The notes under the pieces were generated by a model that was not told the origin of the DNA, ran no database searches, and was given only the letters and a program-made list of their open reading frames with translations. The translations under genes and the position numbers were made by a program. Shown here in pieces: positions 44,168 to 63,141 of a stretch of DNA of 64,000 nt (position 1 is its first letter; each line of letters begins with the position of its first letter). Origin of the DNA: Candidatus Nomurabacteria bacterium (GTDB lineage Bacteria; Patescibacteriota; Minisyncoccia; Phycocordibacterales; UBA10002); the NCBI GenBank assembly GCA_943354745.1, contig CALRDB010000001.1:203-64202 (forward strand). Direction: 5' to 3'.

Positions 44168-44863
44168 ATGAACAAACATAGTAATTTCCACATAAAGAAA
44201 GATAACGTCTTCGAGGTCAAGGAACTATTCAAGGATATTTCTAAGTTGGTGAAGGTGAAGTACAGGAATAAAACGAGTGAGCTTGATATTTTGGATTTGG
44301 GTTGTGCGTCTGGCGAATTGGCCTACTTCCTCAAAAATGATTTGCAAAGCTCTGGAAAAGTGTGGGGTTTAGACATTTCTCGAGAATTGATAAAAAACGC
44401 CAAACAACGCTTTGGCGGATCTAATGTAAAATTTTTTGCTGCAGACGCTTATAATTTTAAGACCGATGTAAAATTTGATGTGGTGACTATGACATCGGTT
44501 CTTTCTTATTTTGACGATCCTTTCCCAGCTATAAAGAATTTGCTCAATCTTTTAAAAGATGATGGTATCGCTGTAATATCCGGCATCTTTAATCCTTGGA
44601 ATATAGACGTTAAGTTGAACTTTAGGGTTCAAGGTGACACAGGGTGGGAGAATTTTCATCAGTTTTCTCTAAGTCGTATTCAGAAATTTATAACTGATGC
44701 CGGCTACGTCTGTAGGATTTCGGAACAGATTATGCCGTTTGATATTCCAATGAAGGAAAATCTTCTCAGATCCTGGACGGTAAACTTGGACGGTAACAGG
44801 TATATGATGAACGGGCTACAGTTGGCCTACAACATTCGTATACTTCAGATAACAAAAAAATAA
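44168..44863 (+). CDS. Class I SAM-dependent methyltransferase
   Basis: It has ILDLGCASGELA and LKDDGIAVISG motifs. Confidence 0.65.
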   Translation: MNKHSNFHIKKDNVFEVKELFKDISKLVKVKYRNKTSELDILDLGCASGELAYFLKNDLQSSGKVWGLDISRELIKNAKQRFGGSNVKFFAADAYNFKTDVKFDVVTMTSVLSYFDDPFPAIKNLLNLLKDDGIAVISGIFNPWNIDVKLNFRVQGDTGWENFHQFSLSRIQKFITDAGYVCRISEQIMPFDIPMKENLLRSWTVNLDGNRYMMNGLQLAYNIRILQITKK

Positions 44864-44875
44864 GAGAATATTTCT

Positions 44876-45424
44876 ATGTTTTTAAAAGAATGTATACAGC
44901 GGATTCGCTTTTGGCGTCGAGCTGACCGTATTGGTCCAGACATGCCGTGGACACACTGGCGACTCTTTTTTCCTTCAAGGATGAAGAATCTTTGTCAGAA
45001 AAGATTTCGTCACTTTGACCCGACTGCTGAAATACGCCCTGGTTCCTACATCCTCGCTTGTTCCAAGATAAGTATCGGTAAGCGCGTAGTTGTTCGTCCT
45101 GGCAGTGTATTTGAGGCCGATCCGCGAGAAGGTGAACACGGGATCACTATTGAGGATGATGTGCTTCTTTCTCCCGGAGTACACCTCTATGTGAATGACC
45201 ATGCGTTTGAAGATACAAGTATGCCAATCTTTGACCAAGATCATAAGCCATCTAAACCGATTACGATCAAACGAGGTTCGTGGATTGGTGCCAATGCTAT
45301 TATTTTGGCGGGAGTGACGATTGGAGAGAACAGTGTTGTGGGGGCGGGGAGTATCGTTACTAAAAATGTACCGCCTCGCGTTGTAGTGGCGGGTAGCCCC
45401 GCCAAGATTATACGTGTTCTGTAG
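44876..45424 (+). CDS. Hexapeptide-repeat (LbH) acetyltransferase
   Basis: It has left-handed beta-helix repeats (ITIKRGSWIGANAIILAGVTIGENSVVGAGSIVTKNV). Confidence 0.7.
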   Translation: MFLKECIQRIRFWRRADRIGPDMPWTHWRLFFPSRMKNLCQKRFRHFDPTAEIRPGSYILACSKISIGKRVVVRPGSVFEADPREGEHGITIEDDVLLSPGVHLYVNDHAFEDTSMPIFDQDHKPSKPITIKRGSWIGANAIILAGVTIGENSVVGAGSIVTKNVPPRVVVAGSPAKIIRVL

Positions 45425-45447
45425 TCTTCATCCTTTCTCGTTATCCA

Positions 45448-46209
45448 ATGAAAGATATCCGAATCATTCCACTTCTGCACATCAAGAGCGAGAACGTCGT
45501 TAAACCCGTGCATACCGAAGCTCTTCGGGTCGTGGGTTCTCCGAAGTCACTCTCGACACGCTATTACGCGGAAGGCGCCGACGAGCTCATTTATCTTGAT
45601 GTTGTCGCCAGTTTGTACCAGAGGAATTTTGATTTTGAGCTTTTGCGCAGTGTGACCGAGAATATATTTATTCCCGTGACAGTCGGTGGAGGCATCCGCT
45701 CAATTACCGATATAAACAATGCCTTGCGAGCCGGCGCGGATAAGGTGGCTATCAATACATACGCTGTACGCCACCCTGTCTTTCTTAAAGAAGCGGCAAA
45801 AGAATTCGGATCTCAATGCATAACGCTGTTCATCGAAGCAAAGCAACGTCCAGATGGTTCTTATGAAGTGTACACCGACGGTGGACGTGAGTGGACCGGT
45901 AGTGACGCAATCGAGTGGGCGAAGCAGGCGATCGATCTCGGAGTCGGTGAGATTCTTATATCCTCCATCGACCGCGACGGAACGAAGCGCGGGTATGACG
46001 TAGAACTGATACGAAAAATAAGTACATTTGCCCCCATCCCCATCATTGCTCACGGTGGAGCCGGTACCAGCGAATCGATACGTGAAGTGATCTGTGAAGG
46101 AAAAGCGGACGCAGTAGCCGTTTCCTCGGTGTTTCACTACGGAGAACTCTCAATCCAGAATGTAAAACGATATTTGGTCGAACGGGGGATTGCGACAAGA
46201 GAAATATAG
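45448..46209 (+). CDS. HisF-like cyclase subunit (WbuZ-type, glycan acetamidino formation)
   Basis: It is a (beta/alpha)8 HisF homologue (IPVTVGGGIRS...IIAHGGAGTSESI) located in a glycan cluster beside a HisH-like gene and a WbuX-like amidotransferase. Confidence 0.7.
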   Translation: MKDIRIIPLLHIKSENVVKPVHTEALRVVGSPKSLSTRYYAEGADELIYLDVVASLYQRNFDFELLRSVTENIFIPVTVGGGIRSITDINNALRAGADKVAINTYAVRHPVFLKEAAKEFGSQCITLFIEAKQRPDGSYEVYTDGGREWTGSDAIEWAKQAIDLGVGEILISSIDRDGTKRGYDVELIRKISTFAPIPIIAHGGAGTSESIREVICEGKADAVAVSSVFHYGELSIQNVKRYLVERGIATREI

Positions 46210-46282
46210 ATATTGTTTTCTGCTGATTCGCGCACTTAGATTTCACGATTATTCAAGAAGCGGAAGAAAGTAAATACACAAC

Positions 46283-46918
46283 ATGAATCACCGAATAGTC
46301 ATCATTGATTACGGAGTCGGCAATCTTTTCAGTTTGCAACGGGCCTTTCGCGCCGTTTCGGGTGAGGCTCTGATCGCGAGTGATGTTGATACGATATACT
46401 CTGCGGACGCGCTGGTCCTTCCGGGGGTCGGGTCATTTGAAGCGGGTATGCGGGGACTGCGGCTCCGCGGGCTGATTGATGTTGTTAAAAATGCCGCTAC
46501 GAAGGGCACGCCTATACTCGGTATTTGTCTGGGCGCTCAACTGCTTCTTTCTGAGGGACATGAGTTCGGTGTGCATCAAGGACTCGATATTATTCCTGGG
46601 AAAGTACTTAAGTTTGAAGGACTGACGCAAAATGAAAAAATCCCGCATGTCGGTTGGAATAACATCTCCCCGCCTGAGGAAGTAACGTGGAAGGGGACTG
46701 TGTTAGATCTCGTCGAGAAGGCTTCCAAAGTGTATTTCGTACACTCATATATCTTGGCACCGAGAAACAAAGAACATACATTCGGGTTAACAACTTACGG
46801 TGGTAAAGAGTTCTGCTCGATAGTCAAGAAAGGTAAGATAATTGGGGTGCAGTTTCATCCTGAGAAAAGCGGAGAAACAGGACTGCGAATCATTAAAAAT
46901 TTTGTTTCAGCCTTGTAA
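46283..46918 (+). CDS. HisH-like glutamine amidotransferase subunit (WbuY-type)
   Basis: It is a class I glutamine amidotransferase with PILGICLGAQLL, HVGWN and VHSY motifs. Confidence 0.7.
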   Translation: MNHRIVIIDYGVGNLFSLQRAFRAVSGEALIASDVDTIYSADALVLPGVGSFEAGMRGLRLRGLIDVVKNAATKGTPILGICLGAQLLLSEGHEFGVHQGLDIIPGKVLKFEGLTQNEKIPHVGWNNISPPEEVTWKGTVLDLVEKASKVYFVHSYILAPRNKEHTFGLTTYGGKEFCSIVKKGKIIGVQFHPEKSGETGLRIIKNFVSAL

Positions 46919-46954
46919 TAAGTCGACCGGCTTTGGAGTTATAATGGATGCCAT

Positions 46955-48139
46955 ATGGTCGTTAAATTAGATAAACAACTTGGTGTACAACCGAAGGAGG
47001 TAACTTTTTGTACTCGGTGTGTTGTATCAAACCAGAGACCCCGCACTGTGTTTGATGCCGAGGGAGTTTGTAGTGCATGCAGATATGTGGAGCAAAAACG
47101 TAGCCATATTGATTGGGAGAAACGGGAGCGGGAACTTCAGGCACTTTGTGACAAACATCGCTCAACAAATGGAGATTTCGACGTGATTGTGCCGTCGAGC
47201 GGCGGGAAGGATAGTGGATACACGGCCCATCTCCTTAAGGAGAAATATGGTATGCACCCGCTCTGTGTTACGTGGGCACCGTTTATCTACACCGATATCG
47301 GCTGGAAGAATTTTCAGGATTTCGTGAAATCTGGATTTACGGTAATAAATTGCTTTCCAAACGGTGTCGTGCATCGAAAACTCGCGCGTGTCGCCTTTGA
47401 ACAAAAAGGAGACGCGTGGGATCCGTTTACTTTCGGGCAGAAAGCGTACGCGTTTCATGTCGCGCTTAAATGGAAAATCCCGCTCATTTTTTACGGAGAA
47501 AATGGGGAAGTGGAATATGGCGGTTCGATGCAAAATGCCACTAAACCGTTTGAATCAGTTTCGGATTGGGAAGCACTCTACTTCAAAGGTTCCGGAATCG
47601 ATACACTGCTCAAAACCGGGGTTGACATGAACATTTTGTCAAAGGATGAAGCTAACGATCCTGTACTTAATCTGTACCGCCCTCCCGCGCTCCGCGATAT
47701 CGAACAGCTTGGAGCCGAAATGCATTGGCTTTCGTATTACCGAAACTGGATACCGCAAGAGAATTTCTATTACGCGCAGAAACACACCGGTTTTACGGTG
47801 AATGAGGACGGCCGTTCAGAGGGTACCTATTCAAAGTACGCTAGCTTGGACGACAAAACGGACGGATTCCATTTTTATCTCGGTTTTATAAAATTCGGCC
47901 TGGGACGAGCAACAAGAGACGCTATGATGGAAATTCGTTCGGGGCATATCACAAGAGAGGAAGGGGTCGCGCTCGTGCGTCGTTTCGACGGCGAGTTTCC
48001 CAAGAAATATCTTAAGGATTTTTTGGAGTACCTCGGTATTACCGAGAAACATTTCTGGGAAGTTGTGGACTCGTACCGTCCTCCTCATCTATGGGAAAAG
48101 ATCAATGGCGAATGGAAGCTTAAATATCAAGTAACATAA
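46955..48139 (+). CDS. N-acetyl sugar amidotransferase (PP-loop ATPase, WbuX/WbpG family)
   Basis: It has an N-terminal Cys cluster (CTRC...CSAC) and a PP-loop (VPSSGGKDSGY). Confidence 0.7.
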   Translation: MVVKLDKQLGVQPKEVTFCTRCVVSNQRPRTVFDAEGVCSACRYVEQKRSHIDWEKRERELQALCDKHRSTNGDFDVIVPSSGGKDSGYTAHLLKEKYGMHPLCVTWAPFIYTDIGWKNFQDFVKSGFTVINCFPNGVVHRKLARVAFEQKGDAWDPFTFGQKAYAFHVALKWKIPLIFYGENGEVEYGGSMQNATKPFESVSDWEALYFKGSGIDTLLKTGVDMNILSKDEANDPVLNLYRPPALRDIEQLGAEMHWLSYYRNWIPQENFYYAQKHTGFTVNEDGRSEGTYSKYASLDDKTDGFHFYLGFIKFGLGRATRDAMMEIRSGHITREEGVALVRRFDGEFPKKYLKDFLEYLGITEKHFWEVVDSYRPPHLWEKINGEWKLKYQVT

Positions 48140-48142
48140 TAT

Positions 48143-48856
48143 ATGAACGTCCTTGCGTATATTCCAGCCCGTGGCGGGTCCAAACGAATCCCGAATAAAA
48201 ACATTCGAGATTTTTGCGGCAAGCCACTTATCGCCTACGCTATCGAGCAAGGCAAGGCGCACCCGCGCGTCGACCGCGTGATAGTCGATACGGACGATGA
48301 GGAAATCGCCACTGTCGCAAAAAAATATCAAGCCGACGTCCCGTTTTTGCGTCCCAAAGAACTTGCCACCGATACCGCACAGGCGTCCGACGCGCTTCTG
48401 TATCTTTTGGAACGGCTGAAAAAGGATGAAGGATATGAGCCGACGCATATTCTGCTCTTGCAAACCACCTCGCCCCTTCGTGAAATGCGCGATATCGACG
48501 CCTGCTTCGAAATGATGGATAAAACGAATGCCGCGACGGTGCTTACGGTCGCCTCAACCCACCCCCGCATCTATTTCCTTGATTCCGAAAACCGCCTTAT
48601 TCTCGCCAATAAAGAGATACACGATTCAAGCAACATGCAGGCGTGGCCGAAAGGGTATCTCCTCAACGGCTGTTTTGTGTATATCATTACGGTTTCGGCG
48701 TTCCTACAAAATAAGAAAATCCTTGCGGACGATACCCGCGGAGTCGTTTGCGATAGGTGGCGCTCGGTGGACCTCGACGAACCGGAAGACTTTGTACTCG
48801 CAGAACTTTTGTATAAGCACAAGAAAGAAATAGAAGCTAACATAAAAAAAATATGA
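48143..48856 (+). CDS. Acylneuraminate cytidylyltransferase family (CMP-nonulosonate synthetase, NeuA/LegF-like)
   Basis: It has YIPARGGSKRIPNKN and a downstream QTTSPLR motif. Confidence 0.75.
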   Translation: MNVLAYIPARGGSKRIPNKNIRDFCGKPLIAYAIEQGKAHPRVDRVIVDTDDEEIATVAKKYQADVPFLRPKELATDTAQASDALLYLLERLKKDEGYEPTHILLLQTTSPLREMRDIDACFEMMDKTNAATVLTVASTHPRIYFLDSENRLILANKEIHDSSNMQAWPKGYLLNGCFVYIITVSAFLQNKKILADDTRGVVCDRWRSVDLDEPEDFVLAELLYKHKKEIEANIKKI

Positions 48857-49824
48857 GGTTTTTTGTCGTCGGCTTAGGCTCGATGGGGAAACGGCGTGTC
48901 CGCAACCTTCAGGCAAACGGTGAAAAAGATATCACCGGTTTTGATATTCGTCCCGACCGTATCGCGGAAGCGAAAGAAAAGTACGGCATCAAAACGGTAG
49001 ACGCACTCGCGGACATGCCTCCGAGTGATTTTGATGCATTGATTATTTCCGTGTCTCCCGATGTGCACGGAGACTACATCCGGTATGCGCTGAAACACAA
49101 AAAACACTTCTTTGTGGAGCACCCGACCAGTGACGATGGCTACAAGGAAGTCATCGCGGACAGGAGCGCCATCGTAAAGGCGCCATCGTGCACGTTCCTA
49201 TTCAACCCCGCTATAAAAATAATGAAGCAGATTCTAGAGAAGGGAACGATAGGAAAAGTGCTCGCGTTTCAATATCATATGGGACAGTATCTTCCCGATT
49301 GGCATCCGTGGGAAGATTACCGCGACGTCTATTTTTCTAAAAAAGAAACAAGCGCGTGTCGTGAAATGTTTTGTTTCGAACTTATCTGGCTCAATTCGCT
49401 TATTGGCGCGCAGGTGAAGGAGGTACGTGGCACCATCACGAAACTGACTGACCTCGACATGGATGCCGATGACACCGTCACGGCGACCCTTCTCTACGAG
49501 AACAACGTGCATGGCACTCTACTCATCGATGTCATATCACGAAAACCTTTTCGCACGCTCCGCACCCTCGGTTCCGAAGGGGTGCTTGAGTGGGAGAGGT
49601 TTGACTACGCGCTTAAAGTTTTTAACGTGGGCACCAAAAAAACCGAGGTTATTCCCATTCCCAAAGGCAATCCCGAAAAAGGCTATGTGAACGAAGAGGA
49701 GATGTATGTCGATGAGATTAAGGCATTTTTGGACGCAATCAAAGAGCGGAGGATATACCCATATTCATTCGAGGAAAACCTAAGAAAACTGGTACTGCTT
49801 GAAAACCTCAAAAAGCAGTCCTAG
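48853..49824 (+). CDS. Gfo/Idh/MocA-family oxidoreductase
   Basis: It has a Rossmann-fold start (FFVVGLGSMGKRRV) and a GFOR C-terminal domain. Confidence 0.65.
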   Translation: MRFFVVGLGSMGKRRVRNLQANGEKDITGFDIRPDRIAEAKEKYGIKTVDALADMPPSDFDALIISVSPDVHGDYIRYALKHKKHFFVEHPTSDDGYKEVIADRSAIVKAPSCTFLFNPAIKIMKQILEKGTIGKVLAFQYHMGQYLPDWHPWEDYRDVYFSKKETSACREMFCFELIWLNSLIGAQVKEVRGTITKLTDLDMDADDTVTATLLYENNVHGTLLIDVISRKPFRTLRTLGSEGVLEWERFDYALKVFNVGTKKTEVIPIPKGNPEKGYVNEEEMYVDEIKAFLDAIKERRIYPYSFEENLRKLVLLENLKKQS

Positions 49825-49860
49825 AACTAAGAGTGCCTCTTTCGGGTTATCAAAGGTATC

Positions 49861-50928
49861 ATGAAAAGAAATATCCTTAGCATTGGTAATAAAATTGTCG
49901 GAACAGGACACCCTGTGTTTATTATTGCCGAGGCTGGGGTGAACCATAACGGGAAACTCTCGCTTGCAAAAAAACTTATTGATGCCGCCGTAAAGGCTGG
50001 CGCTGATGCCGTAAAGTTTCAGACCTTCGACCCCGATACGCTTGTGACCAAGGGGGCTTCGAAGGCAACCTATCAGGATAAGAACGAAGAAACAGAGGGT
50101 GCAGGAGAAACCCAATACGCGATGCTGAGGCGCCTCATGCTCAAACGCGAGTATCATCCTGAACTCAAAAAATACGCGGAGCAAAAAGGCATTATGTTCC
50201 TCTCCACGCCGTTCTCGCTCTCCGACGCGGAGTTTTTGCGGGACCTCGGCATCGTGGCACTCAAAGTCGGTTCAAGTGATACGAACAATATCCCGTACCT
50301 TCGCACTATCGCGAAGTGGAAGCTCCCGATTATTCTTTCGACCGGCATGTCGGATTTACCCCTTCTTCACGAATCGATTACAGCGATACGGAAAGCGGGG
50401 AATAATGACCTTATTGTTCTGCACTGTACCACCAATTATCCTACGCCTATCCAAGAAGTGAATTTGCGAGCAATGCAAACGCTCGAACAAGAACTCAACG
50501 TTACTGTCGGATTTTCCGACCACACGGAAGGTATCGTTGCTCCGGTTCTTTCTGTCGCTCTGGGTGCGTCGATGATCGAAAAGCACCTGACGCTCGACAA
50601 GACCATGCCGGGACCAGATCATAAAGCTTCGCTTGACCCGAAAGGGTTTAAGGAAATGGTTACTGTTGTTCGCGATGCAGAGCAGGCACTGGGTACGGGG
50701 AAAAAGAATCTCTTTGCAAGTGAAATGGAAATAGCCAAAGTTGCTCGCAAGAGTTTGGTGACTTTGCGTCCGGTCAAAAAAGGTGAGAAGTTCACCGAAA
50801 AGAATCTTACTGTCAAACGTCCGGGGACTGGACTCCCTCCAAGAGATTTTGACAAGGTCATCGGTACAAGAGCAACAAAGGATATTAAGGCAGACTGCCT
50901 TCTCATTGTTCATGATTACTCCGCTTAA
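49861..50928 (+). CDS. neuB: N-acylneuraminate-9-phosphate/nonulosonate synthase (NeuB/LegI family)
   Basis: It has an N-terminal TIM barrel (FIIAEAGVNHNG, KFQTF) and a C-terminal SAF/antifreeze-like domain. Confidence 0.8.
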   Translation: MKRNILSIGNKIVGTGHPVFIIAEAGVNHNGKLSLAKKLIDAAVKAGADAVKFQTFDPDTLVTKGASKATYQDKNEETEGAGETQYAMLRRLMLKREYHPELKKYAEQKGIMFLSTPFSLSDAEFLRDLGIVALKVGSSDTNNIPYLRTIAKWKLPIILSTGMSDLPLLHESITAIRKAGNNDLIVLHCTTNYPTPIQEVNLRAMQTLEQELNVTVGFSDHTEGIVAPVLSVALGASMIEKHLTLDKTMPGPDHKASLDPKGFKEMVTVVRDAEQALGTGKKNLFASEMEIAKVARKSLVTLRPVKKGEKFTEKNLTVKRPGTGLPPRDFDKVIGTRATKDIKADCLLIVHDYSA

Positions 50929-52066
50929 GAAAATAGCATACATTTCCGGAACCCGAGCCGACTTTGGTCTAATGACCCCGGTGCTTCAGGTCATCGAAAA
51001 AAGAGAGAAGCACTCGCTTCAGGTCTACGCAACCGGCATGCATCTTATGCCACTCTTTGGGGAAACGATACACGAAGTTAGGAAACTATTTCCGAATGTA
51101 AGGCGTATCGAAGGAGTTTTTGAAAGTGATGAACGCGCCGGTATGGCGCGATTCGCCGGCGCGTTTCTCCCTAATGTCGTGGAAGCTCTGATTACCGAAA
51201 GGCCGGATTTTGTACTGATTTTGGGTGATCGAATAGAAATGCTCGTCGTTGCCGTTGCTTGTTTGTATCTAAGTATTCCCACCGGGCATCTTCATGGCGG
51301 GGAACGGACCGCCACCGTTGATGATGTGGCGCGTCACGCTATTTCAAAACTAGTCTCTTTGCATTTGACGACCACGGAGGATTCCGCAAAACGCCTGCGG
51401 AACATGGGGGAGGAAGAGTGGCGCATTCACATTGTCGGAGCTCCCGCCTTAGATACGATACGTCTTGCGACGCTTCCCACACGGAAAGAATTATGTGAAA
51501 GATTAAAACTTGATTCATCTAAACCTTTTATTTTACTTGTGCAGCATGCAGTAAGCGACGAGACGAAAAAAGTGGGGGAGCAGATACTGGAAACACTCGC
51601 CGCGGTAAAGTCGTTTTCACTACCGGTTGTCGCGATATATCCAAATGCCGATTCCGGTGGCATGCGAATTATCGCTGAAATCGAGAAGGAGAGAGGGAAT
51701 CCGCTCTTTTCCATTTTTCCGAACATATCACATACCGATTTCCTCGCGCTTGAACGCGAGGCGGCAGTTTGGGTCGGAAATTCAAGTGGGGCACTTATCG
51801 AATCATCTTCTTTCGGAACTCCCGTCGTTAACGTGGGAACACGGCAGAAGGGAAGAGTCCGTGGAGAAAACGTCATTGATGCCGGCTACAATAAAATAGA
51901 AATACAAAACGCTATCCAGAAATCTCTACATGACGAGAACTATAGACGGTATCTCAAGACTATTTCGAATCCCTGGGGCGACGGGCATACCGGTGAAAAG
52001 GTGGCCAACATACTTGGGAATCTTGAAGAACCGGCAAAGCTTTTATCGAAACAAATAGCGTATTGA
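50912..52066 (+). CDS. neuC: UDP-N-acetylglucosamine 2-epimerase (hydrolysing), NeuC/LegG family
   Basis: It has KIAYISGTRADFGLM, HLHGGER and NSSG motifs. I place the start at MITPLKK, giving a 17-bp overlap with neuB. Confidence 0.75.
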   Translation: MITPLKKIAYISGTRADFGLMTPVLQVIEKREKHSLQVYATGMHLMPLFGETIHEVRKLFPNVRRIEGVFESDERAGMARFAGAFLPNVVEALITERPDFVLILGDRIEMLVVAVACLYLSIPTGHLHGGERTATVDDVARHAISKLVSLHLTTTEDSAKRLRNMGEEEWRIHIVGAPALDTIRLATLPTRKELCERLKLDSSKPFILLVQHAVSDETKKVGEQILETLAAVKSFSLPVVAIYPNADSGGMRIIAEIEKERGNPLFSIFPNISHTDFLALEREAAVWVGNSSGALIESSSFGTPVVNVGTRQKGRVRGENVIDAGYNKIEIQNAIQKSLHDENYRRYLKTISNPWGDGHTGEKVANILGNLEEPAKLLSKQIAY

Positions 52067-52085
52067 TACTGTTATAGTAAGCACA

Positions 52086-52901
52086 ATGAACGGTGGTGAA
52101 CAAAAGAAAATACGGCGGGCAATCTTGCTCGGAAGGAAAGAAGGAGCAGCGGACGCTCTCTCTTTTTTGCTTGAGCAAGGTGTTACTGTTCCTTTAGTTG
52201 TTGCACAGAAAGATGAGCTAGTGGGACGTTCTCTCGCTAAAGAAGCCCAACGGAGACACATTCCGGTTTTCGGAAATACTCACGACGTCTACGCGCTCTT
52301 AGAAAAAAACGATCCGCTGGTGCAAGACATTGATCTCGTCATCTCTTTTCTATTTTGGCAGAAGATACGGGAGCCCGTCATTAAACTCGGGAAACAGGGG
52401 TGTATTAATTTCCACCCCGCCCCGCTACCTGACTATAAAGGAAGAGCAGGGTATAATACGGCGGTTCTTGATTGTCGGAAAACATTCGGAGTGAGTGCTC
52501 ACTTCATTGATGCCGAAGAATTTGATACTGGTCCGATTATCGAGGTCTTGACATTCCCGCTCGACACTAACTTAGCAACGGCGCTTTCGCTGGAACGGGA
52601 ATCGCAAAAACATCTTCTCTCACTTTTCAAGAAGGTACTAAATCGCTTCATAATGGGTTTGACAATACTGACCACACCTAACATCGGTGGATTGTATCTC
52701 AACAGCGTTGAGCTTGAAGCACTGAAACAAATTGATCCAGAGAATGATTCTGCGGAAGAAGTCGAAAGAAAAATACGGGCGTTCTTCTTCCCTCCGCATC
52801 ACGGAGCGAAGATTACAATTCAAGGGAAGTCCTTCACTCTAATTGATGAGAAAATATTGAAATGGTTAGCGGACATACTTGCGAAGCGTACTGATGTATA
52901 A
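52086..52901 (+). CDS. Sugar N-formyltransferase-like (formyl_trans_N family)
   Basis: It has INFHPAPLPDYKGRAG, which matches the formyltransferase HxSLLPxxRG motif, followed by FIDAEEFDTGPII with the catalytic Asp region. Confidence 0.6.
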   Translation: MNGGEQKKIRRAILLGRKEGAADALSFLLEQGVTVPLVVAQKDELVGRSLAKEAQRRHIPVFGNTHDVYALLEKNDPLVQDIDLVISFLFWQKIREPVIKLGKQGCINFHPAPLPDYKGRAGYNTAVLDCRKTFGVSAHFIDAEEFDTGPIIEVLTFPLDTNLATALSLERESQKHLLSLFKKVLNRFIMGLTILTTPNIGGLYLNSVELEALKQIDPENDSAEEVERKIRAFFFPPHHGAKITIQGKSFTLIDEKILKWLADILAKRTDV

Positions 52902-52915
52902 AATCACTTTTTTCA

Positions 52916-54043
52916 ATGAAACAGTACCCTCTCGCAAAACCTCATATCGGTAAAAAAGAAGAACGTGCGGTACTCGAAGTACTGCGTTCGGGTGTCTTAA
53001 GTATGGGTCCAAAAGTAGAAGCTTTTGAAAAACGTTTTGCTCGTTTTGTCGGCACTAAGTATGCCGTTGCTGTTTCAAGCGGAACTGCCGGCCTTCATCT
53101 AGCCCTTATTGGCGCAAATATCGGTCATGGCGACGAAGTGATTACCACTCCCTTTTCCTTTATTGCTTCTGCAAACGCTATTTTATATGTTGGTGCAAGA
53201 CCGGTATTTGTCGACGTCGATCCCGTGACCTATAACATGGATCCGAAAAATATTGAAGCAGCCATTACTTCAAAGACAAAAGCGATACTCGTTGTGCATA
53301 TTCTTGGGCAGGCAGCTTCAATGAACGCGATATGTGCCATTGCCCGAAAACATAACTTAAAAATCGTCGAGGATGCCTGCGAAAGCATAGGCGCCACCTA
53401 TAAGGTTGGAAAAAAGCTAGAGCAGACAGTTGGGACTTTTGGAGAGTCAGCGGTCTTCGCCTTTTATCCCAATAAGCAGATGACAACAGGGGAAGGTGGT
53501 ATGATAGTGACGAACGACCAGAAGCTCGACGCTCTCTTTCGAAGTTTGCGAAATCAGGGGCGTTCGGCCGATATGAACTGGCTGGAACACCAGCGACTTG
53601 GTTACAATTATCGTCTTGATGAAATGAGTGCCGCACTCGGACTTGTACAGCTCCAAAATATAGAGACGTGTATTCGTGAACGGCAGAAAATTGCAACGTG
53701 GTATCAAGAGTTTTTGTCTCCATACTCAGCGTGTGTCACACCCCCGGCAACCGCCGCTGAAAATACGCATACCTGGTTCGTGTACACAGTTCTCCTTCCG
53801 AAAGATGTTTCGCGCGAAAAAGTGATGAAGCGGCTTGAAGCGGAAGGCATTGCCACTAAACCGTATCTCCCTTCTATACATCTTTTCAGTTTTTATCGAG
53901 AGCAATTCGGCTTTTCCCCAGGTAACTTCCCGGTCTCCGAATTAGTTAGTAATAGGGCATTGGCGTTACCGCTCTATATCGGCCTCAAGAAGACTGAGAT
54001 AGCTTTTATTGTGAAAAAATTAATCACCTGTATTTCTAAGTAA
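52916..54043 (+). CDS. DegT/DnrJ/EryC1/StrS-family aminotransferase (sugar 4-aminotransferase, LegC/PglE-like)
   Basis: It has AVAVSSGTAGLHLAL and PLP-lysine region motifs. Confidence 0.8.
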   Translation: MKQYPLAKPHIGKKEERAVLEVLRSGVLSMGPKVEAFEKRFARFVGTKYAVAVSSGTAGLHLALIGANIGHGDEVITTPFSFIASANAILYVGARPVFVDVDPVTYNMDPKNIEAAITSKTKAILVVHILGQAASMNAICAIARKHNLKIVEDACESIGATYKVGKKLEQTVGTFGESAVFAFYPNKQMTTGEGGMIVTNDQKLDALFRSLRNQGRSADMNWLEHQRLGYNYRLDEMSAALGLVQLQNIETCIRERQKIATWYQEFLSPYSACVTPPATAAENTHTWFVYTVLLPKDVSREKVMKRLEAEGIATKPYLPSIHLFSFYREQFGFSPGNFPVSELVSNRALALPLYIGLKKTEIAFIVKKLITCISK

Positions 54044-54055
54044 TCTTTTATCTCA

Positions 54056-55102
54056 ATGGGTGCCGCATTTAAAGGTAAAAATATATTGGTAACCGGTGGT
54101 ACCGGATCAATCGGTTCGGAAATCGTCCGACAGATCTTGCCGCATAAGCCAAAAACTATCAGGGTCTTTGCTCGTCACGAAGATCGCCATTTTCAACTTA
54201 TGCAAGAGTGGGCCGGACATGAGGGTGTTATCCGCTTTATCGTGGGTGATATCAGAGACAAAGAACGGTTGGCGCTGGCCATGGAGGGTATAGATATTGT
54301 GTTCCATGCGGCTGCGCTCAAACATGTTCCGCTGTGCGAATATAATCCGTTTGAAGCCGTCAAAACAAATATTATCGGAACACAAAACGTGATTGAAACG
54401 GCTCGGAGTGCGCAGGTAAAGCAAGTCATTGGCATTTCGACCGATAAGGTAGCAGAACCGGAAAGTGTCCTCGGTGTCTCCAAGCTCATGGCAGAGAAAT
54501 TATTTTTAGCCACCTACTTTTACAAGGGCAATACGCATACAAAGTTCACCTGTGTTCGGTTTGGTAACGTGTTAGGAAGCCGCGGTAGTATTCTTTCGCT
54601 CATTAAGTCGCATGTGGTCAATGGTACGCCTGTTCCGGTAACTGATCCGGCCATGACTCGTTTCTTTATGACGATCCCCGAGGCGGTGAAATTGGTTCTT
54701 GACGCCTCGCTTCTCGGTAAGGGACAAGAAGTGTTTGTGCTTAAAATGTCTGCTGCGCGTCTCGGCGATGTGGTTAAGGCCGCTCTTTCTTACTACGCCC
54801 CTCTTGTCGGTAAAAAACCTGATGATATCCCCACCACGATTATCGGAAGACGAAAAGGAGAGAAAATGCATGAAAAGATGCTAGCGGATTATGAAATCTC
54901 AACAGCGCTCGAAACTGAGACAATGTACATCCTCACTCCTCAAGGAAATGCGTTTTCCGAATATACTACGACGTACGCGGCCTCCCCAGTGCATATTTCA
55001 AAGAAAAGTTTTTCCTCAGAATTTGCCACCAAGCTTTCTGTACAGGAATTGCGGTCTCGAATTGAAAAGGCAGACATGGATCAGGCGAAAGAATCCCATT
55101 AA
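54056..55102 (+). CDS. UDP-GlcNAc 4,6-dehydratase, Polysacc_synt_2 family (PseB/PglF/CapD-like)
   Basis: It has ILVTGGTGSIGSE, FVGDIRD, HAAALKHVP and STDKV motifs. Confidence 0.75.
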   Translation: MGAAFKGKNILVTGGTGSIGSEIVRQILPHKPKTIRVFARHEDRHFQLMQEWAGHEGVIRFIVGDIRDKERLALAMEGIDIVFHAAALKHVPLCEYNPFEAVKTNIIGTQNVIETARSAQVKQVIGISTDKVAEPESVLGVSKLMAEKLFLATYFYKGNTHTKFTCVRFGNVLGSRGSILSLIKSHVVNGTPVPVTDPAMTRFFMTIPEAVKLVLDASLLGKGQEVFVLKMSAARLGDVVKAALSYYAPLVGKKPDDIPTTIIGRRKGEKMHEKMLADYEISTALETETMYILTPQGNAFSEYTTTYAASPVHISKKSFSSEFATKLSVQELRSRIEKADMDQAKESH

Positions 55103-55109
55103 ATCTCCT

Positions 55110-56891
55110 ATGAACATTATCCGTACACTCGCTAATACGCTCTCGCTCTTTCGTCGCGCCTTTGGGGGGTACACATGGAATATTACCCTTATGGCTGTTC
55201 TCAGTTTTGTAAGTGGCCTTCTGGAGGGGCTTGGCGTTACTGCAGTGATTCCGCTTCTTTCGTTTATCGGCGGCGGCGAAAAAGCAACTGACGCCATCTC
55301 GATCGCCATTGCGGGACTATTCCGGTATTTTAATATTTCTTACACCGCAAAATTTCTTTTGTTATTTATTATTCTTCTCTTTCTAATCAAAGCGGTATTT
55401 TCTTTTTTGTCGCAACAAATCACCGCGCACATTATGGCGGATTTTGAGAAAAAGATGCGAATCAAACTTCTCGCTTCGACGTTCGCCACACGCTGGTCGT
55501 TTCTTTCTTCTCAAAAAGTCGGCCATCTGGACCAGATGCTTACGACTGAGGTTGCTGCAAGTTCATCGATTCTCTATTACCTCAGTAGTTCGATATTGGT
55601 CATCGCAAACCTCGTGGTGTACAGCGCTTTGGTCTTCAATATATCATCCAGCGTTGCTCTCCTTGCTATTTTTTCTGGGATGGTAATTTTCCTCGTTTTT
55701 CTTCCTTTGCTCCGACGCGCCAAGATTATTTCGATCGATATGGTACGGGAGAATAAGAGACTTGCTCATTTTGCGAACGAACATATTATCGGTGCGAAGA
55801 CGATTAAGGCTATGCATCTTGAACGGGCTGCACTTGAAAAGGGTGTGATGCTACTTACGATAATGCAGAAATTATATTTGAAGACCTCTCTTCTAAAAAA
55901 TATGACAACCGCTCTCATTCAGCTTTCAGGTGTCTTTTTCATCATTGGCCTGTTTGCTTTTTTGTATAAGACTTCCGCCTTTCAGTTCGCTTCTTTTGCT
56001 GTCGTGGTCTACGCTCTGAATAAGGTAATTACCAACGTTCAATACGCTCAAAATCAAGCCCATGTCATAAGTTCGCAGACACCATACTTGCAAAGTATCT
56101 TACGATATCAAGATGATGCTTCGGATAATCTTGAGTCCGACAAGGGAACCATGCCTTTTTGTTTTGAGAAAGAAATCGTCTTTTCCAAAGTACAGTTTTC
56201 ATATCGCCCGGGGGAATCAGCTCTTTCCTCTGTGGATTTTTCAATTAAAAAGGGAGAGGCAATCGGTCTCGTTGGCCCCTCCGGATCCGGTAAGACAACC
56301 ATTGTGGATTTGTTACTTCGACTTATTAGTCCAGACAGTGGAGGTATTCTGATTGATGGTAAGAATGTGACCGATATAAGTTTGGATGAGTGGCGAAGTC
56401 ACATCGGTTACATGTCTCAGGATGTATTTTTACTTAATGACACAATCGAGAATAACATTAAATTTTACAGTTCATCAGTCACCAATCACGACATGATACA
56501 CGCCGCCAAGATGGCAAACATCTATGACTTTGTGATGACGCAGCCAGATGGATTTAAGACTGAAGTAGGAGAGCGTGGTCTCGCGCTTTCGGGCGGGCAA
56601 CGTCAGCGCATCGCGCTGGCGCGTGTTCTTGCAAGGAAGCCTGAGCTTCTCATTCTTGATGAGGCAACAAGCGCACTCGACAGCGAATCGGAAGCACTTA
56701 TTCAAGAATCCATCTCCGGTCTAAAGGGAGAACTGACGGTTGTGGCAATCGCACACCGACTCTCAACAATCATGAACTCAGATCGTTTGTTTATTTTGGA
56801 AAAGGGTCGAATACTCGAAGAGGGAACTCCTTCCGAATTGTCGGTTAATGTGGAATCCAGGTTTGCCAAACTGTACAATCGTGAGGTTTAA
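55110..56891 (+). CDS. ABC transporter, fused permease/ATPase (type I exporter, MsbA/PglK-like flippase candidate)
   Basis: It has six transmembrane helices followed by Walker A (GPSGSGKTT), the signature LSGGQRQR and Walker B (ILDEATSALD). I place the start at MNIIRTL; the ORF listed from 54891 is an extension. Confidence 0.8.
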   Translation: MNIIRTLANTLSLFRRAFGGYTWNITLMAVLSFVSGLLEGLGVTAVIPLLSFIGGGEKATDAISIAIAGLFRYFNISYTAKFLLLFIILLFLIKAVFSFLSQQITAHIMADFEKKMRIKLLASTFATRWSFLSSQKVGHLDQMLTTEVAASSSILYYLSSSILVIANLVVYSALVFNISSSVALLAIFSGMVIFLVFLPLLRRAKIISIDMVRENKRLAHFANEHIIGAKTIKAMHLERAALEKGVMLLTIMQKLYLKTSLLKNMTTALIQLSGVFFIIGLFAFLYKTSAFQFASFAVVVYALNKVITNVQYAQNQAHVISSQTPYLQSILRYQDDASDNLESDKGTMPFCFEKEIVFSKVQFSYRPGESALSSVDFSIKKGEAIGLVGPSGSGKTTIVDLLLRLISPDSGGILIDGKNVTDISLDEWRSHIGYMSQDVFLLNDTIENNIKFYSSSVTNHDMIHAAKMANIYDFVMTQPDGFKTEVGERGLALSGGQRQRIALARVLARKPELLILDEATSALDSESEALIQESISGLKGELTVVAIAHRLSTIMNSDRLFILEKGRILEEGTPSELSVNVESRFAKLYNREV

Positions 56892-56950: not shown

Positions 56951-58399
56951 ATGAGATTATTTTTTATTGGATGGTCAGGAAAGGAGTTAGGTCTTATCGA
57001 TGTTATGGTAAGGCTGAAGAAGACTCATGACATCGTCTATTGGAGCGGCGATCGAAAAGAGTTCGAGTCCTACAAACATGAACTTCCCGGAGTTATTTTT
57101 CATGAACACTTCGATGCGCTTTATGGAATTCCGGCAGAGGGGGTAGATACTACCGTCTTTCTTCCTCCTGGTGATGCGCTCCTACGGACACTTTTGGAAA
57201 CAGAATCAACTGTTCTCACTATGATGAATAAGCGATTTGAGGGGGTGCTCGTCAGCGAACGCAAGCATCTCTATTATCGTCATGTTCGTTACTGGAACGG
57301 GGTTCTCGAAACTCTTCGGCCAGACGCCATTATATTTCCCTGTGCTCCGCATACGGTATACGACTTTGTTCTTTATAGTCTAGCCAAGATAAGAGGCATT
57401 CCCTGTATCTTTTTTGAGTTGACGGTTATTGGTGGGCGATCACTCTCGATGAAGGATTTTGTCACTGGTAATGACGCACTGGCAGAAGCGACAAAAGCCA
57501 ATGCCCACACATCAGTTCGGAAAGAAGATCTTCACGTCGATATTCGGGAGTATTATGAGTGGCAGATAAATAAACGCGCAAGTCACACTCCCGCGTATCT
57601 TACAAAACAAATCGCCGACAATTCGGGGGTGCAGAAGATGATAATCAAATTAAAATCGGTTTGGTTAAATGTGTGGGTACATCGAAACTTCGGCGCGTTT
57701 GTTAAAGTCCTGACACATATTCCGCGCAAATTCATACCAAACATGAGAAAGGAGTATTCCTCCGCGACATCTCTTCCGGATTATTCGAGGCCTTTTCTGT
57801 ACGTCCCTCTTAATTATCAGCCTGAACGAACGTCAAGTCCCCAGGGAGGGTTCTTTGTGGATCAGCTCCTCATGGTTGAAATCTTGTCGGCGTGCCTCCC
57901 ATCCGATTGGCTGATCTACGTAAAAGAACATCCCGCGCAGTGGATGCACCGCGGGCCGGATTTCTTCAGTTATCGGTATAAAGGGTTTTACCAGAGTCTG
58001 GCTACATTGAAGAATGTCAGATTGGTGCCCATGGATACGAGTACCTATACACTGATGAGTAAGGCGGTAGTCGTGGCAACCGTGACCGGCACTGCGGGTT
58101 TCGAGGCTGTTATGCGTTCGAAACCGGTTATCATATTTGGATATCCTTGGTACCAACATGCTCCGGGTGTCCTCAGAGTTTCCGACGTCCCGACTGGCAA
58201 AGAGGCGCTAAAGAAAATAGCGCACGGCTTTGCTCCTTCGCAAGATGACGTGCTACAGTACCTATTCAACTTCCAGGATACGAGCTTTATCGGGTATTGC
58301 GAACCTCACGGGCACGAGGTGGCAAACATAGGCGCGGCTAAAAACACGGAACGTATTGTTAAAGCGATTGAAACAGAATTGAGTGCAGTGAGGTTATAG
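56951..58399 (+). CDS. Paralogue of 42535-44037: GT-B-like HP-motif protein (candidate nonulosonate transferase)
   Basis: It has WLIYVKEHPAQWMHRG...VVVATVTGTAGFEAVMRSKPVIIFG, which aligns with the block in 42535-44037. Confidence 0.45.
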   Translation: MRLFFIGWSGKELGLIDVMVRLKKTHDIVYWSGDRKEFESYKHELPGVIFHEHFDALYGIPAEGVDTTVFLPPGDALLRTLLETESTVLTMMNKRFEGVLVSERKHLYYRHVRYWNGVLETLRPDAIIFPCAPHTVYDFVLYSLAKIRGIPCIFFELTVIGGRSLSMKDFVTGNDALAEATKANAHTSVRKEDLHVDIREYYEWQINKRASHTPAYLTKQIADNSGVQKMIIKLKSVWLNVWVHRNFGAFVKVLTHIPRKFIPNMRKEYSSATSLPDYSRPFLYVPLNYQPERTSSPQGGFFVDQLLMVEILSACLPSDWLIYVKEHPAQWMHRGPDFFSYRYKGFYQSLATLKNVRLVPMDTSTYTLMSKAVVVATVTGTAGFEAVMRSKPVIIFGYPWYQHAPGVLRVSDVPTGKEALKKIAHGFAPSQDDVLQYLFNFQDTSFIGYCEPHGHEVANIGAAKNTERIVKAIETELSAVRL

Positions 58400-58408: not shown

Positions 58409-59413
58409 ATGGCTACAGATATATTAAAAGGGAAAACAGTTCTAGTGACCGGAGGAACGGGATCTTTTGGTAAGAGTTTTGTGCGTGAATTATTCGCTCG
58501 GCATGCCGTCAAAAAAGTTATTGTATTCAGCCGGGACGAATTCAAGCAGCATCATATGGAAAAGGAGATGCAAAGCGAGAAGCGTCTACGATTCTTCTTG
58601 GGTGACATCAGAGATATGTCTCGTTTAAGGCGAGCGTTCGCTGGAGTGGATGTCGTGATACACGCTGCCGCGCTTAAGCAAGTTCCGGCACTTGAGTACA
58701 ATCCGTTTGAAGCCATTAAAACAAATGTGATCGGTACGCAAAATGTTATTGAGGCAGCTCTCGATCAAAAGATAAAAAAAGTGGTGCTTATTTCAACCGA
58801 CAAAGCGGCCTATCCTGGAAACTTATATGGCGCAACCAAACTTTGTGCTGAACGGCTCTTCGTTGCGGCTAACTCATACGCGGCAAGACAGACTATTTTT
58901 TCTGTTGTCCGTTACGGGAATGTGCTCGGAAGCAGAGGAAGCTTCGTTGAGACCTTGCTAAAAAATAAAAAGGAAGGAAAGAAAGTTACCATCACCGATC
59001 CTAACATGACACGATTTTGGATTGGTTTAGAACAAGCATACGAACTTGTTGTGTTCGCGCTTCGCCATATGGAAGGAGGAGAGATTTTCATTCCGAAAAT
59101 CCCTAGTATGAATATAGGTGATGTAGTAGAAGCTATTTTCCCTCAAGCAAAAAGAGAAATTGTCGGTCTTCGAGCGGGAGAAAAATTGCATGAGGTCTTA
59201 TTGACCGACCAAGAATCCAGGCATGCTGTGGACTTTAAGCATTATTACGTCGTTCTTCCGGAATTTCATTTCTGGTCGGGTTCTGAGCTCTATCACAACT
59301 ATTTTCAAGTCGGAAAGAAGCTTCCTCTCGGGTTTTCGTATGAAAGCGATACCAACAAAGAGCGTTTAACTATTCAGTCGTTGCGCGATCTTCTCAATGA
59401 TGAACTTATATGA
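58409..59413 (+). CDS. pseB: UDP-N-acetylglucosamine 4,6-dehydratase (inverting), PseB/FlaA1
   Basis: It is near-collinear with Helicobacter PseB over KTVLVTGGTGSFGK, HAAALKQVP, STDKAA.P.NLYGATKL, RYGNV.GSRGS, TDPNMTRFWI, GGEIF.PKIPSM and GEKLHE. Confidence 0.85.
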   Translation: MATDILKGKTVLVTGGTGSFGKSFVRELFARHAVKKVIVFSRDEFKQHHMEKEMQSEKRLRFFLGDIRDMSRLRRAFAGVDVVIHAAALKQVPALEYNPFEAIKTNVIGTQNVIEAALDQKIKKVVLISTDKAAYPGNLYGATKLCAERLFVAANSYAARQTIFSVVRYGNVLGSRGSFVETLLKNKKEGKKVTITDPNMTRFWIGLEQAYELVVFALRHMEGGEIFIPKIPSMNIGDVVEAIFPQAKREIVGLRAGEKLHEVLLTDQESRHAVDFKHYYVVLPEFHFWSGSELYHNYFQVGKKLPLGFSYESDTNKERLTIQSLRDLLNDELI

Positions 59414-60546: not shown

Positions 60547-60552
60547 GAGGAT

Positions 60553-60801
60553 ATGATCCCGTTAGAGATCAAAAATGTCACTTGGTATGTTTACGTGCTG
60601 CGAAGCGAGAAAAGCGGTTATTGGTATACTGGAAGTACAAAGGATTTACGGAAACGTTTTAGACAGCACAACGAGAATAAATCAACGTATACCAACCAGC
60701 GCGGACCATGGGAGCTTATCTATTATGAATGGTGTAAAGACGAGGAAGATGCTCGGTCGAGAGAATTATACTTAAAATCCGGGATGGGGCGTTACCTGTA
60801 A
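60553..60801 (+). CDS. Small GIY-YIG nuclease-superfamily protein
   Basis: It is 82 aa with WYVYVLRSEKSGYWYTGSTKDLRKRFRQHN (GIY...YIG with conserved Arg) and a conserved Glu later. Confidence 0.65.
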   Translation: MIPLEIKNVTWYVYVLRSEKSGYWYTGSTKDLRKRFRQHNENKSTYTNQRGPWELIYYEWCKDEEDARSRELYLKSGMGRYL

Positions 60802-60833
60802 AATCGTCTAAAACGTTTCCTATCTCTAACGGG

Positions 60834-63126: not shown

Positions 63127-63141
63127 TATCTTGATCACTCT

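Follow-up and report, generated by a model that had tools for sequence, protein, structure and literature searches.

A stretch of 64,000 nucleotides from Candidatus Nomurabacteria bacterium (assembly GCA_943354745.1, contig CALRDB010000001.1), hereafter the window, carries at 44168-56891 on the forward (+) strand 13 co-directional genes predicted to synthesize and modify a nonulosonic acid. In the pathway proposed here, a formyltransferase homologue would act where the known legionaminic acid (Leg) pathway has an acetyltransferase. The genes are defined by the list of open reading frames (ORFs) and by gene calls on two identical metagenomic contigs (L001 and L089), both of which show 0 mismatches to the window (in L089 over 13,167 bases). 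Families were assigned by Pfam and NCBIfam searches with curated cut-offs, and relatives of solved structure were taken from a PDB sequence search. All genes listed by an earlier reading of the sequence alone (the sequence-only reading) are found at the starts it gave, on the + strand and in the families it named, with Pfam E-values far beyond chance. The start of the ABC gene, 55110, follows the calls on the identical contigs and is not the longest-ORF start.

The first gene encodes an accessory class I S-adenosylmethionine-dependent methyltransferase of 231 residues (44168..44863; Methyltransf_31, 7e-19, and also Methyltransf_12, 25 and 11), followed by a left-handed beta-helix (LbH) acetyltransferase of the LacA/Maa type (44876..45424; 182 residues, Hexapep, 4e-15). 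Three amidotransferase genes come next: a HisF-like (WbuZ-type) barrel protein (45448..46209; 253 residues, His_biosynth, 1e-62), a HisH-type class I glutaminase in the WbuY role (46283..46918; 211 residues, TIGR01855, 205 bits, cut-off 105), and a WbuX-family PP-loop N-acetyl-sugar amidotransferase (46955..48139; 394 residues, TIGR03573, 357 bits, cut-off 203). The central part comprises a cytidine monophosphate (CMP)-nonulosonate synthetase (48143..48856; 237 residues, CTP_transf_3, 3e-24), a Gfo/Idh/MocA oxidoreductase (48853..49824; 323 residues, Pfam GFO_IDH_MocA plus its C3 domain), a NeuB/LegI-type nonulosonate synthase (49861..50928; 355 residues, TIGR03569, 444 bits, cut-off 400, with NeuB and SAF domains), and a hydrolysing nucleotide-sugar 2-epimerase of the NeuC/LegG type (50912..52066; 384 residues, TIGR03568, 371 bits, cut-off 236). 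The sugar N-formyltransferase-family protein (52086..52901; 271 residues, Formyl_trans_N, PF00551, 4e-16, 59.6 bits, cut-off 26) is followed by a DegT-family pyridoxal phosphate-dependent C4 aminotransferase (52916..54043; 375 residues, PF01041, 6e-121) and a short Polysacc_synt_2 4,6-dehydratase of uridine diphosphate (UDP)-N-acetylglucosamine (54056..55102; 348 residues, PF02719, 4e-98). The last gene encodes an ABC exporter of the MsbA/PglK/HepA type, with fused transmembrane and nucleotide-binding domains (55110..56891; 593 residues, ABC_membrane and ABC_tran).

Since the intergenic distances are only -17 to 73 nucleotides, the genes form a single co-directional array. The sequence-only reading regarded the operon as complete with the exporter at 56891; in fact the array extends to at least 63126 with gaps of at most 59 nucleotides, and a flanking pair of PF05159 genes had been omitted. 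Promoter-like sites are not above expectation (24 found, 27.8 expected from shuffling). Terminator-like sites number 36 against a shuffled expectation of 20.3; most are intragenic, and no boundary was placed from them. Rfam and tRNA scans of the window found nothing.

The comparison loci come from a scan of GTDB species genomes. A scan with the lone formyltransferase sequence gave no match, whereas a scan with a family alignment confirmed 184 relatives, of which the best 80 loci were retained. Synteny was assessed by tblastn of the window proteins against the relatives' loci, giving 85 non-self comparison loci (numbered with L). Related loci are the 23 non-self loci, mostly from Patescibacteria, with a formyltransferase homologue at least 45% identical; Pfam-annotated gene tables cover five of them (L004, L008, L091, L092, L093). 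The complete Niyogibacteria genome CP066691 has nearly the whole operon in the order of the window: PF05159 (- strand), HisF, HisH, methyltransferase, WbuX, CMP-synthetase, Gfo/Idh/MocA, NeuB, NeuC, formyltransferase, aminotransferase and dehydratase, with ABC, GIY-YIG and PF05159 genes following a few genes later.

The NeuC/NeuB route, the formyltransferase homologue and the amidotransferase

The synthase passes the NeuB model of NCBIfam and stays below the cut-off of the PseI model (315 bits, cut-off 340), and the reciprocal result is obtained for a GNAT-PseI fusion encoded downstream (PseI 410 bits, NeuB 272). Other models of the pseudaminic acid (Pse) pathway also remain below their cut-offs in the operon, namely PseB (298 bits, cut-off 408), PseC (323, cut-off 423) and PseF (166, cut-off 206). 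The nearest solved relative of NeuC is the hydrolysing 2-epimerase 5xvs of A. baumannii, which acts on guanosine diphosphate (GDP)/UDP-linked N,N'-diacetylbacillosamine (diNAcBac), with 9e-58; human GNE follows with 5e-45. The nearest PDB matches of the CMP-synthetase are NeuA enzymes (1e-27). PseG, PseH and GNAT proteins are absent from 44168-56891 in a Pfam/NCBIfam scan of every ORF, and because each ORF belongs to another family, no PseG-like candidate is left there. The earlier choice of the NeuC/NeuB route over the Pse route is thus upheld, with NeuB and NeuC above and PseI, PseB and PseC below their cut-offs. A pathway to a 5,7-diamino nonulosonate by the NeuC/NeuB route is very probable.

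Across 32 aligned homologues of the formyltransferase, Asn108, His110, Asp147 and the segment HPAPLPDYKxRAGYN are invariant, and the window protein has HPAPLPDYKG, which corresponds to the folate motif HPxxLPxx[KR]G. Its AlphaFold model (predicted local distance difference test score, pLDDT, 94) has a two-subdomain fold, and the best Foldseek matches are WbkC (E 8e-18, template modelling (TM) score 0.77/0.85) and ArnA (TM 0.72). WbkC and ArnA formylate 4-amino sugar nucleotides, WbkC being a GDP-perosamine N-formyltransferase. WbkC also ranks first in the PDB sequence search (6e-12), and PseJ appears only remotely (about 1e-4, 25 bits, residues 71-166 alone).

The gene order points in the same direction. 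The aminotransferase gene directly follows the formyltransferase gene in 22 of the 23 related loci, and the order NeuC, formyltransferase, aminotransferase is found in 16 of the 23, across several candidate phyla. In the window, the genes from NeuB through NeuC, formyltransferase and aminotransferase to the dehydratase adjoin one another, separated by -17 to 19 nucleotides. The gene tables of the five annotated loci contain no Hexapep or GNAT acetyltransferase inside the module. Thermoleophilaceae loci have a dehydratase homologue, and in many cases one of the aminotransferase as well, in the vicinity of the formyltransferase homologue but lack NeuB and NeuC within 10 kb; this supports formylation at the nucleotide-sugar stage. 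Judged by synteny and by the conserved catalytic residues, the formyltransferase homologue appears to be the only candidate for 4-N-acylation. Action on the 4-amine is favoured because the triad is invariant, the fold resembles WbkC and ArnA, the aminotransferase gene is adjacent in nearly all related loci, and no rival N-acyltransferase lies in the module of the five annotated loci. As the sole candidate for this step is a formyltransferase homologue, N7 of the nonulosonate should carry a formyl group, which is considered reasonably likely. N-formylation of the 4-amino intermediate had been offered earlier as a possibility; family, predicted structure and synteny now make a stronger case for it.

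In the WbuX protein, residues 82-87 form the PP-loop SGGKDS and the N-terminus carries a CxxC...CxxC motif; the protein is 77% identical to its homologue in L008. The HisH protein has the glutaminase residues Cys82 (GICLG) and His192/Glu194 (FHPE). The HisF-like protein scores slightly under two cut-offs, with 264 bits for WbuZ (cut-off 300) and 288 bits for hisF (cut-off 295). In place of the cyclase residues Asp11 and Asp130, it has His and Glu, respectively. The His is shared with the Niyogibacteria homologue, while other cluster-linked homologues mostly retain Asp; at position 130, cluster-linked HisF-like proteins typically have Glu. Because the cyclase Asp residues are substituted, the protein is not the HisF of histidine biosynthesis. 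A histidine-biosynthesis HisH/HisF pair was considered and rejected, since these residues are lost and, in at least 12 related loci, the pair is embedded together with WbuX. The HisF-like protein would instead be the ammonia-channel partner of HisH and WbuX, which fits the WbuZ role in acetamidino modification. The identification of the three proteins as acetamidino machinery, made in the sequence-only reading, is supported by the passed TIGR03573 model and the PP-loop and glutaminase residues. With N7 formylated, N5 bears the sole remaining acetamido group, which leads to the prediction of a 5-acetamidino-7-formamido sugar; the acetamidino group at N5 is considered quite likely.

The methyltransferase has homologues in only two non-self loci; in L008 and L093 its homologue lies between HisH and WbuX. 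This position amid the amidotransferase genes suggests N-methylation of the amidine, as by C. jejuni PtmH; by this analogy the enzyme would N-methylate the acetamidino group or, alternatively, O-methylate. The methyltransferase and the LacA-like acetyltransferase may be strain-specific decorators that add N- or O-methyl and O-acetyl groups.

The steps of the proposed pathway are assigned from family membership and synteny. The dehydratase would convert UDP-N-acetylglucosamine to a UDP-4-keto-6-deoxy sugar, the DegT enzyme would aminate C4, and the formyltransferase homologue would transfer the formyl group of N10-formyl-tetrahydrofolate to the C4 amine. The NeuC/LegG-type enzyme would then remove UDP and invert C2, and NeuB would condense the product with phosphoenolpyruvate to a 5-acetamido-7-formamido nonulosonate, which the cytidylyltransferase would activate to the CMP-sugar. 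The adenylating PP-loop enzyme WbuX would use ammonia from HisH, delivered through the HisF-like barrel, to turn the N5 acetamido into an acetamidino group. The expected product is a zwitterionic, net neutral 5-acetamidino-7-formamido (5Am7Fo) sugar. The two PF05159 proteins are likely transferases, and the ABC protein would most likely export the resulting glycoconjugate. Taken as a whole, it is somewhat probable that this conserved Patescibacterial operon makes a CMP-activated 5,7-diamino-3,5,7,9-tetradeoxynon-2-ulosonic acid in which N-formylation replaces N-acetylation of the 4-amino intermediate. A wider proposal is tentative: a conserved operon shared among Patescibacteria of the candidate phyla radiation (CPR) would make the zwitterionic 5-acetamidino-7-formamido nonulosonate, N-methylated or O-acetylated in some strains, with the formyltransferase subfamily having displaced PglD/LegH and with a transferase resembling KpsS and an exporter resembling MsbA serving its display.

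Configuration of the sugar and competing readings

Several points weigh against the proposed pathway. The formyltransferase subfamily is uncharacterised, and the substrate details are extrapolated because both the aminotransferase and the formyltransferase have their nearest solved relatives among enzymes that act on GDP-perosamine. An unlinked N-acetyltransferase may be encoded elsewhere in the genome. Some relatives might formylate a deacetylated N5, since a PIG-L deacetylase gene lies beside the formyltransferase gene in L006 and L007. The PDB ranking of NeuB fails to separate PseI, SpsE and NeuB. Finally, the sugar may lack the Leg configuration, as the dehydratase is nearer to Pen, PseB and FnlA than to PglF.

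L006 and L007 are the closest loci, with a formyltransferase homologue 67% identical; the genes that immediately precede it encode a WbqC-like protein and the deacetylase (L006 1034-3285, L007 8562-10813), an arrangement that resembles the one reported for Kuenenia. In L004 (1-2611), another related module, with a formyltransferase homologue 64% identical, has a type V CRISPR-Cas locus about 5 kb away that encodes a Cas12-like protein with REC1, RuvC and NUC domains, Cas4, Cas1 and Cas2.

The nearest PDB relatives of the dehydratase are 6bwc (1e-76), PseB (6e-68), FnlA (4e-63) and PglF (3e-47). The entry 6bwc is deposited as 'polysaccharide biosynthesis protein CapD', and we take it to be B. 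thuringiensis Pen. Pen, PseB and FnlA form L-series products. The LegB model gives 71 bits against a cut-off of 475. The active site has TDK and LGVSK, in which Leu replaces the Tyr of short-chain dehydrogenases/reductases (SDRs). All formyltransferase-linked dehydratase homologues have Met or Leu at this position, whereas the true PseB encoded nearby has Tyr, and a canonical PseB active site is thereby ruled out for the operon enzyme. Met is presumably found here in both PglF, a retaining enzyme, and CapE, an inverting one, and the motif is therefore compatible with either retention or inversion. The aminotransferase remains below both the PseC cut-off and that of LegC (296 bits, cut-off 420); GDP-perosamine synthase is its nearest PDB relative (3e-79), PglE and PseC are equidistant, and it is 35% identical to the true PseC encoded downstream. 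The PDB rankings of NeuB, the aminotransferase and the dehydratase were rejected as decisive for stereochemistry, since they do not discriminate.

The Gfo/Idh/MocA gene overlaps the stop codon of the CMP-synthetase gene by 4 nucleotides, and the pair is kept in 12 non-self loci. By analogy with the ElaB-ElaA system, its product could possibly oxidise a hydroxyl of the CMP-nonulosonate. ElaA is a Gfo/Idh/MocA enzyme, encoded beside the CMP-transferase ElaB and proposed to oxidise C8 of CMP-Leg5,7Ac2 (PMC13656337). The Gfo/Idh/MocA protein of the window has no informative match in the PDB, ElaA not being detected among the solved structures, and the Pfam family scan shows no ElaC-like SDR reductase in the operon.

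These data bear on the alternative in which the 7-formyl and 5-amidino groups are kept and the sugar is another stereoisomer (8-epi, 4-epi, acinetaminic-type or 8-keto), formed by an inverting dehydratase, by action of the Gfo/Idh/MocA enzyme on the CMP-sugar, or by both. The ranking of the dehydratase speaks for it, as does the conserved CMP-synthetase/Gfo pair, which mirrors the ElaB-ElaA pair of the 8-epi-Leg system (PMC13656337). However, the dehydratase motif differs from PseB, a NeuC/LegG-type enzyme and not PseG follows, the operon has no ElaC-like reductase, and for the Gfo/Idh/MocA protein no ElaA match could be detected in the PDB. PglF, to which the operon dehydratase is compared at this residue, presumably has Met. 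On balance, such a stereoisomer is unlikely. Of the earlier label 'legionaminic', the NeuC/NeuB route stands; the configuration cannot be read from sequence, and the dehydratase resembles Pen, PseB and FnlA more than PglF. The Leg configuration is given slightly less than even weight, and 'legionaminic-type' is our best guess as a name for the route.

A second alternative divides the genes into two modules. The dehydratase, aminotransferase and formyltransferase would make UDP-2-acetamido-4-formamido-2,4,6-trideoxyhexose for a glycan, and NeuC, NeuB and the CMP-synthetase would make N-acetylneuraminic acid (Neu5Ac; Neu5Am after WbuX) from UDP-N-acetylglucosamine. The Thermoleophilaceae loci, where the first module stands alone, are in line with this, and TIGR03568 and TIGR03569 carry the names of neuraminic acid (Neu) enzymes and do not split Neu from Leg. 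Moreover, the SugarBase preprint points to acetimidoyl-Neu species. In contrast, the five genes from NeuB to the dehydratase are tightly contiguous in the window, their order is kept in most related loci of several candidate phyla, and the nearest solved relative of NeuC is the diNAcBac-specific LegG-type enzyme, ahead of human GNE. The division into two modules is accordingly regarded as improbable, and a single pathway to the formylated nonulosonate is retained.

The LbH protein has its best NCBIfam matches among maltose, galactoside and WbbJ O-acetyltransferases, and the NeuD/PglB model covers just its C-terminal 49 residues (65 bits, cut-off 161). In the PDB it comes closest to LacA (1e-20) and Maa (2e-18); in the alignment, one of its His residues faces the GH motif that is conserved in LacA. 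Of the 85 non-self comparison loci, L025 alone contains a homologue. The protein was therefore rejected as the N-acetyltransferase of the pathway (PglD/LegH type), being LacA/Maa-like and missing from nearly all syntenic operons; it is probably an accessory O-acetyltransferase. The gene and family given for it by the sequence-only reading are borne out, and its place in the core set is not. Further down its PDB list are the sugar N-acetyltransferases 7s43 and 3mqg, the latter of which we take to be WlbB. A conventional Legionella-like pathway to Leg5Am7Ac, in which the 4-amine would be acetylated either by the LbH protein or by some unlinked acetyltransferase and the formyltransferase homologue would be otherwise employed or inactive, is very improbable: the operon does contain an LbH acetyltransferase with these more distant N-acetyltransferase relatives, but its best matches are O-acetyltransferases, it is gone from almost all syntenic operons, and the formyltransferase homologue is always there with an invariant catalytic triad.

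Transfer, export and neighbouring genes

The array is flanked by two PF05159 genes (Capsule_synth, KpsS/KpsC-like), which were assigned by Pfam and encode candidate nonulosonate transferases. The upstream gene (42535..44037, - strand; 500 residues) is divergent from the operon, and in the Niyogibacteria locus L008 a homologue is found at the corresponding place. The second (56951..58399, + strand; 482 residues) directly follows the ABC gene, as its homologues do in related loci, and its product has a weak match to a KpsC structure (7e-8). The two proteins score 41.9 and 42.0 bits, respectively, against a cut-off of 20 and are 25% identical to each other. PF05159 presumably also includes KpsS1. 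PMC11040635 describes that enzyme as a glycosyltransferase specific for Pse.

The ABC protein, a putative flippase or exporter of the lipid-linked or polymeric glycan, scores 351 bits for the HepA family, 312 for MsbA and 213 for PglK, all under the cut-offs. The pairing of an ABC gene with a PF05159 gene is repeated in L006, L008, L019, L020 and L091. An exporter dedicated to the sugar, as first proposed, is unsupported; what is found is an MsbA/PglK/HepA-type half-transporter conserved beside a KpsS-like transferase. Because of this transporter type and the paired transferase, export of a glycoconjugate is likelier than that of a free sugar, and the CMP-sugar would more likely be put on a lipid-linked or polymeric acceptor before the conjugate is exported.

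Directly downstream, at 58409-60546, are the genes for the true PseB and PseC, which score 445 bits (cut-off 408) and 495 bits (cut-off 423), respectively. These genes begin a second, canonical pseudaminic acid pathway, passed over in the sequence-only reading, that covers 58409-64000 of the window and continues at 7576-15211 of L089. This set comprises PseB, PseC, a GIY-YIG ORF, a Gfo/Idh/MocA protein and a class III aminotransferase and, further on, a cytidylyltransferase-DUF218 fusion (446 residues) and the GNAT-PseI fusion (521 residues). Past the window, the same contig carries these two fusions, a Wzy_C/TPR protein and then MurB and SecA. No PseG-like gene was seen in the downstream Pse pathway, and it may be speculated that DUF218 substitutes for it. 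The SecA gene (L089 19364-20963, about 6 kb past the window end) encodes a protein 83-85% identical to SecA of Candidatus Taylorbacteria. By this marker the host is Taylorbacteria-like and hence a CPR/Patescibacteria bacterium, a point that the sequence-only reading had missed.

Small GIY-YIG ORFs of 82-96 residues recur in or beside nonulosonate clusters of different CPR genomes; they are found at 60553-60801 (+) of the window, at 18588-18869 of L008 and at 18691-18981 of L089. Fusions of ATP sulfurylase and adenosine 5'-phosphosulfate kinase with a pyruvate-kinase-like domain, together with sulfotransferases, adjoin the homologous operons at L008 13546-16711 and L093 1-2534. They hint at sulfated glycans in these two CPR genomes; sulfate-activation genes are absent from the window. 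A faint MptE-like match (PF01973) follows the homologous operon in L093, from Yanofskybacteria, at 14797-15690. PF01973 is the Maf/DUF115 family linked to nonulosonate transfer to flagellin, and the MptE-like protein may be a transferase type alternative to PF05159.

Outside the operon, almost all scanned ORFs of the window are glycan-related (GT4 and GT2 glycosyltransferases, methyltransferases, AsnB-like proteins, Gmd and others). Two ORFs inside this glycan island, at 36351-38132 (+; 593 residues) and 20272-21645 (-; 457 residues), have no Pfam match. At 32750-35400, genes for a HAD phosphatase, a transaldolase/FSA-family protein and a SIS-domain protein are grouped near an FkbM methyltransferase and Gmd, and they may form a separate branch of sugar phosphates (heptose or ketose-derived). 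A 153-residue ORF at 41909-42370 (-), which separates a GT4 gene from the upstream PF05159 gene, is the truncated remnant of an insertion sequence: its match is confined to the C-terminal third (positions 213-298 of 304) of the profile for a Zn-binding transposase of the IS256 family. Glycan genes appear to take up more than 70 kb of a genome of probably about 1 Mb.

Comparison with known systems

At the cell surface, nonulosonic acids are key determinants of recognition, of immune evasion and of binding to phages or hosts; their charge depends on the N-acyl groups. Almost nothing is known of the surface chemistry and host-attachment determinants of CPR bacteria, many lineages of which have conserved the operon. 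If the proposal is true, these ultra-small episymbionts would have sialic-acid-like sugars as a major and conserved trait of their surface. Many members of the formyltransferase subfamily are displayed under the source name 'methionyl-tRNA formyltransferase', and renaming the subfamily correctly would improve glycan-pathway prediction in metagenomes. Full-text literature searches linking Patescibacteria with nonulosonic, or candidate phyla radiation with pseudaminic, found nothing, and those on 7-formamido legionaminic acid found nothing relevant. As far as could be found, the 5-amidino/7-formyl nonulosonate is chemically undescribed. The overall interpretation of the sequence-only reading is partly supported.

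UDP-route Leg pathway: The operon shares with the UDP-route pathway of L. pneumophila and the Lga pathway of A. baumannii the dehydratase, C4 aminotransferase, hydrolysing 2-epimerase, NeuB-type synthase and CMP-synthetase. The WbuX/HisH/HisF-type amidotransferase for the 5-acetamidino group is likewise shared with the Leg5Am7Ac system of L. pneumophila. In contrast, a PglD-type acetyltransferase is present in the known pathway, and here a formyltransferase-family enzyme is found with no PglD/LegH type. The operon dehydratase is PseB/Pen-like, not PglF- or LegB-like, and the host is a CPR bacterium.

PseJ of Anoxybacillus kamchatkensis: This enzyme (PDB 6ci2/6ci4) is cited for Pse5Ac7Fo in PMC11040635. 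There, an enzyme of the formyltransferase fold replaces the N-acetyltransferase on the UDP-4-amino intermediate and yields an N7 formyl group, as predicted here. However, PseJ belongs to the Pse branch, whereas the window operon has NeuC and NeuB. Moreover, the crystallised PseJ chains have 192-217 residues, and the window protein has 271 with a WbkC-like C-terminal subdomain.

Halorubrum and Kuenenia: A predicted formyltransferase gene also occurs in the Leg-type cluster of Halorubrum sp. PV6, assigned to 5-N-formyl-Leg (PMC6137143), and in that of Ca. Kuenenia stuttgartiensis, where it is accompanied by a deacetylase and linked to a formyl group plus a free amine (bioRxiv 10.64898/2026.04.20.719630). 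As in the window, the gene lies amid legB/legC/legG/neuB/legF-type genes, and N-formylated nonulosonates were detected in those organisms. Compared by description only, the formyl group is at N5 in Halorubrum and predicted at N7 here, and the deacetylase beside the Kuenenia formyltransferase is lacking in the window operon. Both clusters are described without an amidotransferase, in contrast to the trio of the window.

Amidotransferases and ElaB-ElaA-ElaC: C. jejuni PtmG and PtmH are associated with Leg5Am7Ac and N-methyl-acetimidoyl Leg, respectively. The PP-loop amidotransferase is common to PtmG/PtmH, to WbuXYZ/WbpG of E. coli and P. aeruginosa and to the window operon, and in related operons a methyltransferase likewise lies amid the amidotransferase genes. 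The CMP-Leg5,7Ac2 8-epimerase system ElaB-ElaA-ElaC of A. baumannii KL49 and V. vulnificus shares the Gfo/Idh/MocA gene placed directly after the CMP-transferase gene; it differs by its ElaC-type SDR, which the window operon lacks, and no ElaA match was found in the PDB.

The N7-formyl Pse made with PseJ, formyltransferases in Leg-type clusters and the amidotransferase trio are already known, and the operon is a variant of a known pathway. What is new is most likely the use of an uncharacterised formyltransferase subfamily in the place of the acetyltransferase on the NeuC/NeuB route, coupled to the amidotransferase. The conservation of the genes as one operon across CPR lineages is also new, as is its position beside a second, Pse-type pathway.

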